Source: a virus (Duplodnaviria > Caudoviricetes). Taken from it: a stretch of 64,000 bases of DNA. Positions 17,790-57,638 of this stretch are shown here, piece after piece. Where the stretch lies: positions 32,001 through 96,000 of the IMG/VR virus record IMGVR_UViG_3300049573_000247; one strand, given 5' to 3'. Made by a program: the position numbers and the translations under genes. The first letter of the stretch is position 1, and every line of letters begins with the position of its first letter. The notes beneath the pieces are model-generated. The model did not search any database, was not told the origin of the DNA, and saw only the letters and a program-made list of their open reading frames with translations.

Positions 17790-17817
17790 TGTCCGTTTTG
17801 TGCGGTAAACTTCCCGT
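17790..17817 (+). promoter_or_regulatory. leaderless promoter of endolysin with TGTCCG box
   Basis: TGTCCGTTTT 17790; TAAACT 17806-17811; ATG 17818; no SD. Confidence 0.65.
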
Positions 17818-48952: not shown

Positions 48953-49252
48953 TCACGCCTGGGGGTGGCGTTTTCCGGGGGCGGCTGGTCTGCCGATGGT
49001 GGGGCTTTGGGCTGCGCGTTGGTGGCTGAGGGTGATGCGTTGTTGGTTCCAGGTTTTCCAGTCGTGTTCGCGTTCTTGGAGCCAGAGGGGGGTGGGGGTG
49101 GTTTTGTTGCCGATGAGGTGTGCGTCGGGTGGTGGGCTGGGGAGGTCGGGGTCGTTGTGCCATTTGTTGATGAGGTGGTTGATGTTGCTGGGGGCGTATC
49201 CGAGGGTTCTGGCGATGTGGCTGGTGGTGATGTAGGTGGGTGGGGTGTTCAT
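48953..49252 (-). CDS. small HTH DNA-binding protein
   Basis: YITTSHIARTLGYAPSNINHL...PPPD...PLW. Confidence 0.7.
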   Translation of the reverse strand: MNTPPTYITTSHIARTLGYAPSNINHLINKWHNDPDLPSPPPDAHLIGNKTTPTPLWLQEREHDWKTWNQQRITLSHQRAAQSPTIGRPAAPGKRHPQA

Positions 49253-49378
49253 TGGGTGGTCCTTGGTGGTGGGGTGCCGCGCTGCTCGGGGTATGACTGC
49301 CGTGCAGCGCGGCGGCTTGGGTGTTCATGGATGTTTGTGGTGTTCACGTTAGCAGGTTGTGGTGGTGGGGGTAGGGCG

Positions 49379-49957
49379 ATGTCGGGTGAGGTCGCGTCGT
49401 GTTCGGGTCTAGACTTCCTGGCCATGCAGGTGAGACGTAATCTGCCTTTCGGCCATGTGCCGGAGGAGCATCGGGTGCAGGTGTTCGCGGGTTTGGGCGC
49501 GGAGTACGGCTCTGTGGAGGAGCTTGAGAAGGTCGAGTTGTGGTTGTCAGTGGCGGCGGCTGAGTGCACGTCTTGTTGTCAGCGTCTGGTGTGGCTACTG
49601 GCTAAGGATGTGGGGGCGGTGGCGGCGTTGGGGAAGGTCGTGAAGTGGTTGTTCACGGCTGCGCCGCCGCCGGAGGGGGCGCATGAGGAGTTGATGGAGT
49701 TGTTGCGGTGGAGTTCGGTGGGTGATCGGGCGGATCTGGTGGTGGAGGTTGCGAACGATTTTGTTGCGCGGCGGCGTGCGGTGAGTGGGGATGTTGCGGG
49801 GTCGTTGGGGGGTGGTGAGTTACTGGTGGGGTTGGAGGAGGGGGGTGATGGGCTGGGTTTCGCAGGGGAAGACGGCGGTTTTGGGGTGGTCGGGTGTGGC
49901 GTGGAGGAGGGTTTCGAGGGGGTTGAGTGGGGTGAGGAAGGCGATGACGTGCCATAG
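49379..49957 (+). CDS. CxxC helical protein (paralog 1)
   Basis: CTSCCQRLVWLLAKD; 3' end overlaps convergent gene. Confidence 0.55.
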   Translation: MSGEVASCSGLDFLAMQVRRNLPFGHVPEEHRVQVFAGLGAEYGSVEELEKVELWLSVAAAECTSCCQRLVWLLAKDVGAVAALGKVVKWLFTAAPPPEGAHEELMELLRWSSVGDRADLVVEVANDFVARRRAVSGDVAGSLGGGELLVGLEEGGDGLGFAGEDGGFGVVGCGVEEGFEGVEWGEEGDDVP

Positions 49958-50266
49958 GCCGGTGGTGTCGTGGGGTGGGGGGTTTCCCCAGCCGGGGATG
50001 ACGGTGAGGGTGTTGGTGAGGTGGGGGTAGCGCAGGAGGGCGTTGCGGGTCCATTCGGGGACGGCGAGGAAGTAGGGGCTGTCGCGCCATCGGTAGCGGA
50101 GTTCGAGTTGTACTGATTCGATGAAGACGCCGAGGAGTCGGGTGGTGTCGGTGGGTTCTTCGGTGTCGGAGAGTTTCCAGTAGGGGGTGTCTCCTGCTGC
50201 TTCGATGATGCGTCGCATGGTCATGTTGATGTGGGCGTGTACGGGTCCGGGGATGTCGGTGCGCAT
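49820..50266 (-). CDS. hypothetical protein
   Basis: 148 aa ORF. Confidence 0.6.
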   Translation of the reverse strand: MRTDIPGPVHAHINMTMRRIIEAAGDTPYWKLSDTEEPTDTTRLLGVFIESVQLELRYRWRDSPYFLAVPEWTRNALLRYPHLTNTLTVIPGWGNPPPHDTTGLWHVIAFLTPLNPLETLLHATPDHPKTAVFPCETQPITPLLQPHQ

Positions 50267-50280
50267 GGGGTGACGCTAGC

Positions 50281-50964
50281 TTAGAGGCGTTTCCCGGGCT
50301 GGTATTTCTCTCGTGTTTCGAGGTAGTCGTCGGGTAGCTGTTCGACGGGCCCTGGGGCGGGGAGGCCTTGCACGTGCCTGGCGAAGTACTGGGCGAGTGG
50401 CTGTCCGGCTTGCCAGAGGTGGCGGGTGTAGTTGCGCCACGGGGTGACGACGTCGGGGTCGGTGAATCGGATGTTGCGGTCTTGGACGCCGTGTTCGTCG
50501 TAGGTGTGGAGGTAGAGGACGGTGTCGTCCATGGTGCAGATCTCGGGGAGTTCGGAGCCGTAGGTGTGTTCGTCGCCGGTGGTGACGGTGGTGGGGAGGA
50601 CGCGGATGGTGCCTTCGAAGATCTCGTCGCGTAGGCGCAGCAGGTGGAGTTCCCATTGGAGGTAGGGGCCGATGGGTTCGTCGACGATGCGGATGCGGCG
50701 TGCGGTGATGTCGTGTTCGGTGGTTTCGCCGTAGTGGGCTTTGAGGTCGGCGCGGCGTCCTTCGATGAGCTGGAGGGCGAGGTTCCAGTTCCCGCGTTGG
50801 AATGCCTGCCATGAGGCGTCGTGTGGTTCAGCGAAGTGTGTGGCGCGTTCGAGTTTCCAGAATTCGGTGGCTTGCCAGAAGCGGGTGTTGAAGTCGGCGA
50901 AGAAGGTTTCGTCGGGGAGGTACTCGCCGTCGGTGGGGTCCAGTGGTGGTGGGACGGTCGTCAT
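50281..50964 (-). CDS. DUF6879 family protein
   Basis: FWKLER..F.EP..SW.AF..G.W; RRIRIVDEPIGPYLQWE; LPE. Confidence 0.85.
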   Translation of the reverse strand: MTTVPPPLDPTDGEYLPDETFFADFNTRFWQATEFWKLERATHFAEPHDASWQAFQRGNWNLALQLIEGRRADLKAHYGETTEHDITARRIRIVDEPIGPYLQWELHLLRLRDEIFEGTIRVLPTTVTTGDEHTYGSELPEICTMDDTVLYLHTYDEHGVQDRNIRFTDPDVVTPWRNYTRHLWQAGQPLAQYFARHVQGLPAPGPVEQLPDDYLETREKYQPGKRL

Positions 50965-51145
50965 CGCGGGTGCCTTCCGGTGGGTATGGGACAGCCCGGG
51001 GGACGGAGGTCACCCCGGGCTGTTCGGGTTGGGTGGCCGAGACGGTGGCTGCCCAACCCTATGTGTCGTCATACTTCGCGTGCGCCAGCGTAGCATCCGC
51101 GACCGGCTCGCGTTCGCCCGGTTCACCGCAACACTTCGTGAACAT

Positions 51146-51169: not shown

Positions 51170-51811
51170 ATGTCGAATTGGGATGAACCGATCGAACTCG
51201 ATGAAGACATCGAGTTGTGGGAGCAGCAGCCGGGCGAGACCGACGAGCAGTACACCTTGTTCAAGATGTACATGAAGCTGTCGCCGCAAGCCGACACGGA
51301 CAGCCGTGAAGTGCTGCCCCGTCGGATCTCCGAACTGTTCGGCAAGACCGACTTCTCCGACCGACACGTCAAGCGCCTCGCACGCCGCTACTGCTGGGAG
51401 GTGCGGGCTCGCGCGAACGACCTCGCGAAGGTCCAGTCCGTGCAAGGCCAGCTCGAACACCACTGGCTCGTCCTGGTCGAGAACCGGTTGAAGCAGCTGT
51501 CGAAGGCCGAAGAGATGATCTTCAAAGCCATGGAAGTGATGCTGCAGGAAGCCGACACATGGAAGCTTCGCGACCTGGTCTTGCTGTGGGAGACATCGGT
51601 GAAGGTCGGCAACGGCATCCTCGGTATGACCCGACTGGGCGGACCCGAGCAGGCTGCCGTCGCGCATGCCATGGCCACCTCCCGCACCGAAGTCACCGTC
51701 GGCGGCGCCGGTGACTCGCTTGACGCCCGCACCATCGAACTTGCCGAGGAACTCCGGCGCAGGGCCGAACTCGCCACCGCTGCCCCGGCACCGGCGATCG
51801 AACAGGACTAG
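51170..51811 (+). CDS. terminase small subunit-like protein
   Basis: WEQQPGET..Y..F..Y...W..RA.A.D pattern plus helical C-terminus. Confidence 0.7.
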   Translation: MSNWDEPIELDEDIELWEQQPGETDEQYTLFKMYMKLSPQADTDSREVLPRRISELFGKTDFSDRHVKRLARRYCWEVRARANDLAKVQSVQGQLEHHWLVLVENRLKQLSKAEEMIFKAMEVMLQEADTWKLRDLVLLWETSVKVGNGILGMTRLGGPEQAAVAHAMATSRTEVTVGGAGDSLDARTIELAEELRRRAELATAAPAPAIEQD

Positions 51812-54545: not shown

Positions 54546-54546
54546 G

Positions 54547-54628
54547 TGGACCGGGCAGGATTTGAACCTGCGATGCATGACGCAGCTGGTTTACAGCCAG
54601 CCCCTTTTGGCCGCTCGGGCACCGATCC
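54547..54628 (-). tRNA. tRNA-Tyr(GUA), long variable arm, CCA not encoded
   Basis: GGATCGG TG CCCGAGCGGCCAAAAGGG GCTGG CTGTAAA CCAGC TGCGTCATGCATC GCAGG TTCAAAT CCTGC CCGGTCC A. Confidence 0.92.
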
Positions 54629-54738
54629 TTGTCGCCCGGCCTTCCCCCACGGATGACCGGGCGCGCCCGCTTTGCGGGGAGTCCTACAGGGGTCGTCGCC
54701 TTGCGGCGGGTCCCCACCGGCCTTCCCCGACAAGAAGC
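54629..54738 (-). ncRNA. candidate structured RNA in tRNA-Tyr leader
   Basis: closing stem CTTGTCG/CGACAAG enclosing three hairpins; -10 TAGACT at 54745-54750. Confidence 0.5.
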
Positions 54739-54775
54739 GACGTGAGTCTAGCACGCAGTCGGGTGTTTGTGGTGG

Positions 54776-55152: not shown

Positions 55153-56667
55153 CTAGAACAAGTCGGTAGTCGACCAGTCGACGGGGTCGGCGTGGATGCT
55201 GATGCCGATGGGGGGTTCGATGATCTCGCCTCGCCCGTATCCCGATCCTTTGAGGAGTCCCTGGGCGAGGTAGACGGTGGCGTCGATGCGTCCGGGCGAC
55301 TCTCGCGAGCCGGGTTGCCAGGTGGTCCACTGCTGGATGAGTTTGTCGTGTTCGCCTACGAGGCGGATGTCGCCTTGTACCCAGTATTGGGCAACGGGGT
55401 CCGCGCGAATGCGTTTTCCGTATCGGGCGCGAACTTCATCTATTCGGGGGATGGGGACATCGGGCGGAATGGTGCCGTCCTCCTCCAGATCGGACCATGC
55501 CGACTGGATCTGGAGTTTGCACATCTCGCCGCCGAAGTTCGTCTCCACGAAGATGACGTCGGCAGTCAGCTCGTAGGACATGAGAGCGACCTCGCGGGCC
55601 CACTCGGTGGGTGAGGCCTGTCGGGATTTGTCGTGGGTGATGTAGCAGCGGTGGTCGTCGCCGAGGAATCCGGCGACGATTCCGGCTTCGTCGCCGCCTG
55701 CGGTGCCGGAGGGGTCGACGGCGACGGCGACACGCAGTTTGTCGGGGAGCGGTTCCCCGGGGCGGTGCCGGGAGGCTTCGATCTGTTCGAGGTTGAGGAG
55801 TGCGCCTTCGGCGGGCTGGGGGTCGCATTGGAAGAGCGCGAACCAGTCGCGTTTGGACAGCGAGGATTGGAGGCCGCCCCAGTGGGCGAGGAGCGCGTTC
55901 GTGTCATCGTGGGGGATTTTGGGGTGGCCGAGGGGTTCGCCGAGGGCGCGGCCGAGCGGGTCGTTGGATTCGACGGCGATCGCGGGGAGGCGGATGACGT
56001 CCCATTCGTCGCCTTCGCGTTTGAGGAGGCGACCGGCTATGTCGTCTTCATGCCAGCGGGTGAGCACGAGGACGATGGGGGCGCCGGGTGAGCCTCGGGT
56101 GAGGAAGGTGGAGGTCCACCAGTGGTCGACGGCGTCGCGGAACAGCTTCGATTCCGCTTCTTCACGGTCTTTGTGGGGGTCGTCGCAGATGAGGAGATCG
56201 CCGTCATGGCCTGTCAGACCCGAACCGACACCGACAGTTTTCATGCCGCCGCCGGTAGTGAGCTTCCAGGCTTGGGCGGTGCGTGCTTCGGGAGAGATGG
56301 TGAGGCCGAGCTTGTGGCCGTGCTCGCGGACGGCCTTGCGGACGTCGCGGCCCCAGTTTTTGGCGAGGTCGGAGCCGTAGGCGGCGGCGACGACCTGGTG
56401 ATGGGGGTGGTGGGCGAGCCACCACAGCGGGAATTTCTTGGTGACCAGCTCGCTTTTGCCGGTGCGCGGCGGCGCGAAGATCATGATCTTGCGTTTGCCG
56501 CCGGGTTGGCGCAGCCGTGCGAGGCGCTCGCCGATGAGTCGGTGGTGGGGGCAGATCTGGTAGCGGGGTTCGAGCCACGCGCCGAGGCTGGCGGGATCGT
56601 GGAGCGCCTGGACGCGCGCGGCGTAGGCGTACAGCTCCGCGTCAGACAGCTTCGAAAGATCCGGCAT
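55153..56667 (-). CDS. terL: terminase large subunit
   Basis: Walker A PPRTGKS; LTG..GDLLICDDP.K; TRWHEDD; nuclease VAVDPS, ETNFGG, SPGRIDA. Confidence 0.95.
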   Translation of the reverse strand: MPDLSKLSDAELYAYAARVQALHDPASLGAWLEPRYQICPHHRLIGERLARLRQPGGKRKIMIFAPPRTGKSELVTKKFPLWWLAHHPHHQVVAAAYGSDLAKNWGRDVRKAVREHGHKLGLTISPEARTAQAWKLTTGGGMKTVGVGSGLTGHDGDLLICDDPHKDREEAESKLFRDAVDHWWTSTFLTRGSPGAPIVLVLTRWHEDDIAGRLLKREGDEWDVIRLPAIAVESNDPLGRALGEPLGHPKIPHDDTNALLAHWGGLQSSLSKRDWFALFQCDPQPAEGALLNLEQIEASRHRPGEPLPDKLRVAVAVDPSGTAGGDEAGIVAGFLGDDHRCYITHDKSRQASPTEWAREVALMSYELTADVIFVETNFGGEMCKLQIQSAWSDLEEDGTIPPDVPIPRIDEVRARYGKRIRADPVAQYWVQGDIRLVGEHDKLIQQWTTWQPGSRESPGRIDATVYLAQGLLKGSGYGRGEIIEPPIGISIHADPVDWSTTDLF

Positions 56668-56695
56668 AACCCGAATCTACCTGAATGTCCGTTTC
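56668..56695 (-). promoter_or_regulatory. leaderless promoter of terL with inverted TGTCCG box
   Basis: TAGATT 56679-56674, 6 nt, ATG 56667; TGTCCGTTTC 56686 on + strand. Confidence 0.65.
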
Positions 56696-56709
56696 ATTCA
56701 GCTATGAGA

Positions 56710-57045
56710 GTTCTGCGCCGCGCTGCTATCGCGCTTCGAGCCATGAAGCAGCGCGGCGCAGAACCACACAGGCCCCCCGGGACGACAGACCCCTCCTGTG
56801 CGCTGTAGTGCGGCCGTGTCCGATGCACGCCGCACGCGGCAAGTACCCACCTTGCAGTCTGCGATTGCGCCGGGTCACCCCGTCTGTCCAACGGGGCCTT
56901 CGGAACCTCCGATGCTACCTGGAGGTGTGGCCTCACTGGTACGCGCGTCACTTCGTACCGTACGGAGCGTCTCCGCTAACGTCCGCCTCTCCTGTGGCCC
57001 AGGGGGAGGCGACTGGCGGTGAAGCCACATGTGCCAGCTGCCTGT
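56710..57045. ncRNA. candidate multi-stem structured RNA upstream of terL
   Basis: nine or more stems covering most of a 335-nt intergenic region. Confidence 0.55.
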
Positions 57046-57046
57046 T

Positions 57047-57289
57047 TTATAGCATCCCGTCGGCGCCGTCGCTCAACCACAGCCCGAACCCGATGGTGCC
57101 CTCAGCGTGGCCACTGGAGTGCCTGACCATCCACGCCAGTGCGGCCTCGCGCGTGGGGGCGGTGGCGCAGGCGCTGCACGATGCGCGTCCCTGGCAGCAG
57201 ATGACCACCGGGTAGCAGTAGCCGATGTCGTCCAGCAGCCGGTTGAACGACCACAGCGGCGTGCCCGCGATCAGCGCATCAGGGTTCAT
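57047..57289 (-). CDS. small Cys-rich protein
   Basis: CC...CSAC...H. Confidence 0.6.
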   Translation of the reverse strand: MNPDALIAGTPLWSFNRLLDDIGYCYPVVICCQGRASCSACATAPTREAALAWMVRHSSGHAEGTIGFGLWLSDGADGML

Positions 57290-57638
57290 GGCCTGATGGT
57301 AGTGGGGGCGGCGGGGCCGCGAGGTCGTCTTCGCCGATGAAGTACGCGCGCGGCGCGGTCCACCATGCGATCGGTTGGCCGCTGTCACCGGTGAACGGCG
57401 GATCGCCGTAGAGCACGAACACGCCAGGCACCACCGTGATGTACCCCTGCGGTGCGTCGGAGCCGTAGTCGTCCCTGTCGCGGCGTCCGACGTGGATCTG
57501 GATGCCTGCATCGAGCTTGCCTTCGACATCGGTGGCCCAGTCGGCCAGGCGCAGCATCAGCCGCGACTTCAGATCGGGAGGGCACACCAGCGTGATCGGT
57601 GGCTGGGACAGATAGGAGTCGTCGATCTGCTCGCTCAC
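57279..57638 (-). CDS. hypothetical protein
   Basis: GTGA overlap. Confidence 0.65.
   Translation of the reverse strand: MSEQIDDSYLSQPPITLVCPPDLKSRLMLRLADWATDVEGKLDAGIQIHVGRRDRDDYGSDAPQGYITVVPGVFVLYGDPPFTGDSGQPIAWWTAPRAYFIGEDDLAAPPPPLPSGHEP

Follow-up and report, generated by a model that had tools for sequence, protein, structure and literature searches.

The 380-base gap in front of terL in the genome of a large actinophage contains conserved, structured and non-coding RNA, and the upstream regions of 15 terL relatives place this composite on the minus strand of the window, in sense with terL. The gap can be resolved into separable parts, namely two RNA modules, a hairpin resembling a terminator and the promoter of terL itself (Table 1). 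Combining the comparative data with the arrangement of promoters and terminators, we suggest, with a probability of roughly 0.4, that one of the two modules, here called the core, is a cis-acting, promoter-proximal leader or attenuator before terL that acts by antitermination or in a riboswitch-like manner.

Table 1. Features in and around the gap upstream of terL (positions in the window)
Feature	Position	Strand	Description
Upstream small gene	57047..57292	-	81 aa; its stop codon forms the 5' edge of the non-coding stretch
RNA-1 -10-like hexamer	57046..57051	-	6 nt before RNA-1; lacks the final T; overlaps the upstream stop codon
RNA-1	56921..57039	-	Four-way junction; 10-bp closing helix and three hairpins; junctions and loops invariant
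Small hairpin	56905..56926	-	Loop holds the -10 hexamer of the core (56912-56917); stem verified
Core RNA	56799..56904	-	~105 nt; three hairpins and two tertiary helices
Core 5' strand	56900-56904	-	5 nt, UCCRR
Core hairpin P1	56878-56896	-	
Core junction J1/2	56858-56874	-	17 nt, nearly invariant
Core hairpin A	56839-56855	-	
Core hairpin B	56808-56835	-	7+3 bp with a one-base bulge
PK1	56900-56904 with 56819-56823		5' strand with loop of hairpin B
PK2	56871-56874 with 56846-56849		J1/2 with loop of hairpin A
Variable spacer	56765..56798	-	Not conserved; holds one arm of a kissing pair proposed earlier
18-bp hairpin	56710..56764	-	Perfect, GC-rich; terminator-like, no U tract
terL promoter box	56668..56695	-	10-nt motif (56685-56694), -10 hexamer (56674-56679), 6-nt spacer, then ATG
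terL	55153..56667	-	504 aa; Pfam Terminase_6N (E 1e-9) and 6C
Promoter-like hexamer with multi-hairpin element	54620-54770	-	Folding z only -0.94
tRNA-Tyr	54546-54628	-	

The source is a single IMG/VR virus record of 141,154 bp with 66% GC; the window, by which we mean the whole stretch of 64,000 bases that was analysed, comprises bases 32001-96000 of that record. The last 127 bases of the record recur near its start (G000:C1:1-147), and this overlap, typical of k=127, indicates a circular assembly; IMG/VR lists the record as linear. TerL is a T4-type large terminase with a nuclease domain (Terminase_6N and 6C). Its nearest cultured relatives are actinophage terminases at ~40% identity (Saccharomonospora, Gordonia), and prophage relatives at 45-49% identity are found in Streptomyces, Micromonospora and Nonomuraea; because its relatives are thus terminases of actinophages and actinobacterial prophages, an actinobacterial host is probable. 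A candidate for terS (phrog_6299) is located at 51170-51811, 3.3 kb from terL, and the portal gene is found on the opposite strand at a distance of 4 kb. The minus-strand genes upstream of terL encode a DUF6879 protein, a HIT-family protein and three small ORFs; the 81-aa gene at the edge of the gap has no Pfam or PHROG match, and family searches with the neighbouring small ORFs gave nothing informative.

Several observations concern the wider neighbourhood. Downstream of terL and a 112-aa ORF, a promoter-like hexamer is followed by a multi-hairpin element of ~105 nt and then by tRNA-Tyr; the terL relatives also have one to three tRNA genes downstream of terL. Three of the related terminases (P0019, P0025 and P0029) are 664-865 aa long and contain an intein splicing domain (PF14890). 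In one relative, a protein of the Acb2/Tad1-hairpin family, a family of anti-CBASS/anti-Thoeris sponges, is encoded ~1.7 kb downstream of terL (L029:5203-5442, minus strand). Within the window, positions 49001-51000 have GC skews of +0.52 and +0.36 and AT skews of -0.44 and -0.31, far beyond the rest.

The gap itself does not behave as coding sequence. In a GC3 frame plot the codon-position GC signal is absent from 56668 to 57046, while GC3 is ~0.9 in both flanking genes, and the flat GC3 together with indels that are not multiples of three rules out coding potential. A search of the gap for tRNA and tmRNA genes found none, and a comparison of the region with 50,697 phage records revealed no DNA similarity.

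Relatives of terL were collected from IMG/VR, from JGI and ENA metagenomes, and from Logan/JGI/ENA assemblies by protein search and contig look-ups; those in IMG/VR and Logan range from 47 to 96% identity. In the three closest relatives terL is 87-96% identical, yet the gap aligns throughout at only 77-81% nucleotide identity, and the differences are largely paired changes in stems. More distant relatives retain just parts of the gap, which therefore is modular. The two RNA modules in particular can be separated: in L026 an ORF on the opposite strand stands between RNA-1 and the core, which are 430 nt apart, and the core is present alone in 10 loci. For this reason the gap is not the one large RNA that had been proposed from the sequence alone.

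The evidence for the core rests on 16 copies in 15 loci, which score 57-98 bits with its model (R1). In the model-based alignment, which was fitted to hairpins A and B and not to the pseudoknots, 92.3% of the pair cells hold standard pairs compared to 30-43% when the partners are slid by one to three columns. Both partners have changed in 16 of the 24 pairs, and covariation as strong as that observed did not occur in any of 500 shuffles. The sequence of P1 is almost wholly different between lineages; the hairpin still forms in 12 of the 13 copies that were folded. PK1 is paired in every copy (100%), with two covarying positions that yield three versions, UCCAG/CUGGA, UCCGA/UCGGA and UCCGG/CCGGA. 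PK2 joins CCC(G) in J1/2 to (U)GGG in the loop of hairpin A, and one of its positions is occupied by CG in 14 copies, AU in one and UA in one, i.e. by two independent compensatory variants; because these fall at just one position, the support for PK2 is suggestive. The stems of the core vary freely and J1/2 is nearly invariant, suggesting that J1/2 makes a specific contact, either tertiary or with a ligand or protein. The compensatory changes upstream of terL relatives are clear.

The strand, which had previously been left undecided, follows from the mispairs. In the minus-strand reading, G.U pairs outnumber A.C pairs by 23:1 in the core and by 23:7 in RNA-1, and the RNA is therefore read from the minus strand, in sense with terL.

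All nine stems that the sequence-only reading had listed are present where it placed them, and seven are perfect. Of the other two, the stem 56926-36/57019-29 is interrupted by a single mismatch, read as G.U on the minus strand, and the arms of the stem 56984-94/57000-11 differ in length. The same reading had proposed a kissing contact between 56784-90 and 56882-88. The 7-nt complementarity is present in the sequence, but one of its arms lies in the variable spacer, most of which is missing from L002 and which differs in L001 and L003, and L001 has no counterpart of the pair; the contact is therefore not conserved. Given that two other tertiary pairings covary, the idea of loop pairing was right in kind and wrong in place.

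Folding energy was a poor guide to these structures. The whole region folds better than dinucleotide shuffles (z of -3.9 for the minus and -5.3 for the plus strand), but this does not hold for the core alone, for which z is -0.26; RNA-1 reaches -2.2. Since the signal comes mostly from the 18-bp hairpin, folding energy is a poor test in DNA of 66% GC, and it is covariation that counts. More generally, z-scores of folding energy overlook such RNAs in GC-rich DNA, in which covariation detects them.

The claim that the region next to terL holds an undescribed structured RNA was borne out: no Rfam family was found in a scan of the whole window at gathering thresholds, in a scan of the region at E<=10 or in a scan of 11 relatives at E<=0.5, the sole matches being weak miRNA-like ones on the 18-bp hairpin and tRNAs elsewhere. 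A T-box resemblance of the loop of hairpin A was considered and dropped, as the Rfam T-box model gave no match. The core family is small, consisting of 16 copies in one phage lineage. A single copy was detected by the core model in each of four related phage records, and none in a small sample of 151 genomes drawn from the class of a Rhodococcus genome together with one Mycobacterium MAG. Pattern searches added no members: a hairpin-B pattern gave five matches in genome contigs, all by chance and 21-25 nt long; a J1/2 pattern gave 38 matches in IMG/VR, of which those outside the family all lie in coding regions of unrelated phages; and a pattern for the terL box recovered only the family and one chance match, L035. 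A 2023 survey gives 8,495 as the number of candidate RNAs that it predicted in IMG/VR 3 (PMC10690425). Promoter-proximal structured phage RNAs are a known kind; the fold of the core is new as judged against Rfam 15, and the RNA is rare and cleanly delimited.

A promoter for the core can be predicted. All 15 non-tandem copies have a TANNNT hexamer that precedes the 5' strand by 6-8 nt; its sequence takes at least 10 different forms, and in each case it is the only TANNNT within 25 nt upstream of the core, the background of this motif in the phage genome being 0.0015 per position. Varied TANNNT sequences at a fixed distance are the signature of the actinobacterial -10 element in leaderless and sigma-A promoters. 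Judged from this hexamer, the transcript would start at or just before the PK1 strand. In L029, L033 and L079 the gene directly before the core promoter codes for a protein with a UTRA domain, which in GntR/HutC regulators is the effector-binding domain; in the window small unrelated ORFs occupy this place.

The promoter of terL is separate from that of the core. All terL relatives down to ~69% amino acid identity, including L005 and L076, both of which lack the core, have kept a sequence of roughly 25 nt that ends 6-7 nt before the ATG. In L005 it directly follows the terminator of the upstream gene and, therefore, the box must carry terL's promoter. Its hexamer varies only within TANNNT, and the spacer is 6-7 nt long and variable in sequence. 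As at leaderless actinobacterial promoters, the TANNNT stands 6-7 nt before the start and a Shine-Dalgarno sequence is absent, and terL is probably translated from a leaderless mRNA. Leaderless mRNAs appear to be widely used by this phage: a TANNNT exactly 6 nt before the ATG or GTG of an ORF with high GC3 occurs 14 times genome-wide compared to 0-7 times at other spacings, from which it follows that leaderless starts are common. The 10-nt motif of the box recurs three times exactly and six times with one mismatch, always on the minus strand; base composition would, as a rough estimate, give ~0.1 exact copies, which points to a regulator site. Besides the box, eight sites in the genome have the motif, among them positions 17798 and 62515 of the window and 96936 of the genome, and at 17798 it adjoins another hexamer-N6-ATG start but is inverted relative to that gene.

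What lies between the core and the next gene differs from locus to locus. The 18-bp stem of the window is the longest perfect hairpin in the 141-kb genome. As an intrinsic terminator it has the stem and lacks the U tract, and a scan for consensus terminators found none there. The genome contains 24 perfect hairpins with stems of at least 12 bp, compared to 0-1 in shuffles, and most of these have no U tract, so that GC-rich hairpins of this type are probably the usual end-of-operon signals of the phage. GC-rich hairpins without a U tract follow the core in the window, L001-3 and L018, and that in L018 shows compensatory changes. In L006, L016 and L031 a canonical U-tract terminator takes the place of the 18-bp hairpin, directly before the terL box. 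These three loci share a further conserved extension of ~60 nt after hairpin B and before the terminators, which may represent an additional RNA domain in a long subtype. In 9 of the 15 loci the core is followed, at distances from 7 to ~230 nt, by a terminator or terminator-like hairpin, three of these being canonical with a U tract.

The remaining six loci have no terminator after the core. In four of them (L025, L026, L033 and L079) hairpin B lies 10-15 nt from the terL box. In L030 a Shine-Dalgarno sequence is found ~10 nt after the core, followed by a 76-aa ORF. In L004 two tandem cores (L004:2162-2371) share one promoter, the second copy having none of its own, and are followed by ORFs of 76 aa (weak matches to ribbon-helix-helix and DUF6290) and 108 aa (no family) at L004:2412-2965 and then by the terL box; this pair of ORFs may be toxin-antitoxin-like. 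Given that these six loci have no terminator, the transcript must enter the next gene, and the core must be a 5' leader there.

Upstream of the core, RNA-1 forms a separate structured module, found only in the window and in five relatives (L001-3 and L026/27); among five sequences 7 of its 37 predicted pairs show compensatory changes. The hexamer in front of it is kept in the window and in L001-3; in L026 a different TANNNT stands 7 nt before the same RNA start. This hexamer could be the promoter of RNA-1, although the assignment is weak because in the window the final T is missing and the hexamer overlaps the upstream stop codon. A closing helix between the 5' end of RNA-1 and the sequence after the 18-bp hairpin was considered and dropped, as it is absent in L003 and impossible in L026.

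In the model that we favor for the core, the host-type -10 promoter would initiate an RNA of ~105 nt, the first five nucleotides of which would pair with the loop of the third hairpin (PK1), while J1/2 would pair with the loop of the second (PK2), and together the two pairings would generate a compact double-pseudoknot fold. The growing transcript would then meet the 18-bp hairpin, a putative conditional terminator just before terL's leaderless promoter, and the core would decide whether polymerase coming from the upstream promoter stops at the hairpin or continues into terL. It might do so alone, in the manner of HK022 put or EAR, or when bound by a protein or small ligand, in the manner of nut or a riboswitch. 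We favor a cis-acting leader because of (i) the six loci without a terminator, (ii) the order and orientation that are kept despite insertions and divergence, (iii) the promoter shared by the tandem copies, and (iv) the variable distance of the terminators, as processive antitermination elements would lead one to expect. Each of the 16 copies is located upstream of terL or of an ORF that precedes it, in the same sense, a count that is biased by the fact that all were reached through terL relatives; the core is retained with terL even where neighbouring proteins share only 40-58% identity. Several observations speak against a cis-acting leader. The terL box works without the core in L005 and L076, so that terL expression does not depend on read-through; no clear Shine-Dalgarno sequence would precede terL in a leadered mRNA; no conserved antiterminator pairing between the core and a terminator arm was found; and the hairpin in the window has no U tract. 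Pairings of the PK1 strands with the terL box or the terL start, examined by eye, show no covariation and were rejected.

Nearly as likely as the cis-acting leader is that the core belongs to a stand-alone gene for a trans-acting small RNA, i.e. a discrete RNA of ~100-200 nt with a 5' end protected by PK1 and a hairpin at its 3' end, which would act on a host or phage target or bind a protein, and which would owe its place by terL to descent and not to function. The terminators or terminator-like hairpins between core and next gene in nine loci, three of them canonical, are what such a gene would show, and the independence of the terL promoter points the same way. U-tract-less GC-rich hairpins are usual in this phage, so that hairpin B could end short forms of the RNA, and the genome has other units of a promoter and a structured RNA, e.g. 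that upstream of tRNA-Tyr. A small RNA gene is harder to reconcile with the six loci in which no terminator precedes the next ORF or terL, with the Shine-Dalgarno sequence within ~10 nt of the core in L030, and with the second tandem copy in L004 that lacks its own promoter. Moreover, the core has retained its order and orientation with respect to terL although sequences have been inserted on either side, and a search of the phage genome for a target complementary to J1/2 revealed none.

Among known cis-acting RNAs, the closest parallels to the leader that we favor are put of HK022 and the Bacillus EAR element (epsC), which are processive antitermination RNAs. As in these systems, a compact RNA is located promoter-proximally in the nascent transcript, terminators follow at variable distance and no dedicated adjacent protein gene is needed; EAR also contains a pseudoknot. 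Both the early folded RNA and the variably spaced terminators are found here, a likeness in anatomy alone. The differences are that there is no match in sequence or model, with epsC included in Rfam, and that the downstream gene has its own promoter. The PR'-6S RNA-tR' arrangement of lambda similarly combines a constitutive-looking promoter, a short leader and a terminator before packaging and late genes; in lambda, however, control is exerted by the Q protein at a DNA site and the leader is not a conserved fold, whereas here the RNA fold is under selection. The leader of T4 gene 32 also has a pseudoknot at the 5' end of a phage mRNA, and in the short forms of the core an A-rich unstructured stretch extends up to the start codon as it does in that leader. 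The gene 32 leader, however, is a translational operator for its own protein; TerL is not known to bind RNA, and terminators intervene in most loci.

With pseudoknotted riboswitch aptamers (e.g. preQ1-III, SAM-II, ZTP) the core shares a size of ~100 nt, variable stems, invariant junctions and a covarying tertiary pairing, as well as a location in sense on the 5' side of a gene, one genome with a tandem pair, and a family in which some members have terminators and others abut the start region. Two general features of riboswitches, a covarying aptamer-like fold with an invariant junction and a location as a same-strand 5' leader, are found here, the latter on the basis of the start predicted from the -10 hexamer. 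As for an expression platform, terminator-like hairpins lie 7 to ~230 nt off in nine loci, without a conserved alternative pairing. The core differs from riboswitches in that it matches no known class, has no mutually exclusive antiterminator consistent across loci and lies in a gene context that suggests no ligand. A new class of riboswitch or RNA-only antiterminator that gates terL expression is an unlikely though tangible prospect.

Alternatively, the core might stabilize the 5' end of a transcript. The double pseudoknot would bury this end and protect it from 5'-end-dependent decay (by RNase J or E in actinobacteria), by analogy with exonuclease-resistant viral RNAs. PK1 invariably engages the first nucleotides of the predicted transcript, and this function would fit the six loci in which the core leads straight into an ORF. 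An RNA of ~105 nt with an invariant junction far exceeds what a 5' hairpin needs, however, and terminators follow the core in most loci; we therefore regard a stabilizer as quite improbable.

Two further possibilities concern packaging. The region could be a DNA-level site (cos, pac or a replication origin) in which the stems are incidental or are protein-binding inverted repeats, as might be suggested by its single occurrence in the genome and by related actinophage records in which terL is located within ~600-2,000 bp of the left end; changes that preserve pairing, a G.U excess on one strand and promoter-like hexamers at fixed distance instead point to selection on a transcript, and the record, with its 127-bp overlap a circular assembly, gives no physical ends, so that we consider such a site very unlikely. 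Least probable of all is the packaging association that was suggested at the outset, for which PK1 and PK2 would have to be intermolecular and to form an RNA ring that works with the TerL motor as in phi29: although phi29 pRNA (RF00044) is likewise a phage-encoded structured RNA with covarying loop pairings near the gene for the packaging ATPase, although covariation cannot separate pairing in cis from pairing in trans, and although the core stays with terL across diverged genomes, the pRNA model matched neither the region (gathering threshold and E<=10) nor any of 11 relatives (E<=0.5), the proposed kissing contact lacks conservation, no link of the RNA to proheads emerged, close terL relatives (L005 and L076, 69-73% identity) wholly lack the core, and in place of an ATPase of the phi29 type without nuclease domain and without terS the phage has its T4-type TerL with nuclease domain and a separate terS candidate.

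Large soil actinophages have scarcely been explored for structured RNAs. The core provides a well-supported double-pseudoknot fold with a predicted promoter and a fixed place before the gene for the packaging ATPase. Control of read-through would make it an RNA switch that times DNA packaging in a high-GC host with leaderless mRNAs; action in trans would make it a new phage small RNA; and in the improbable case that it is a packaging RNA, it would be the first outside the phi29 group. Either way, the core is a compact target of ~105 nt for structure probing and phage genetics.
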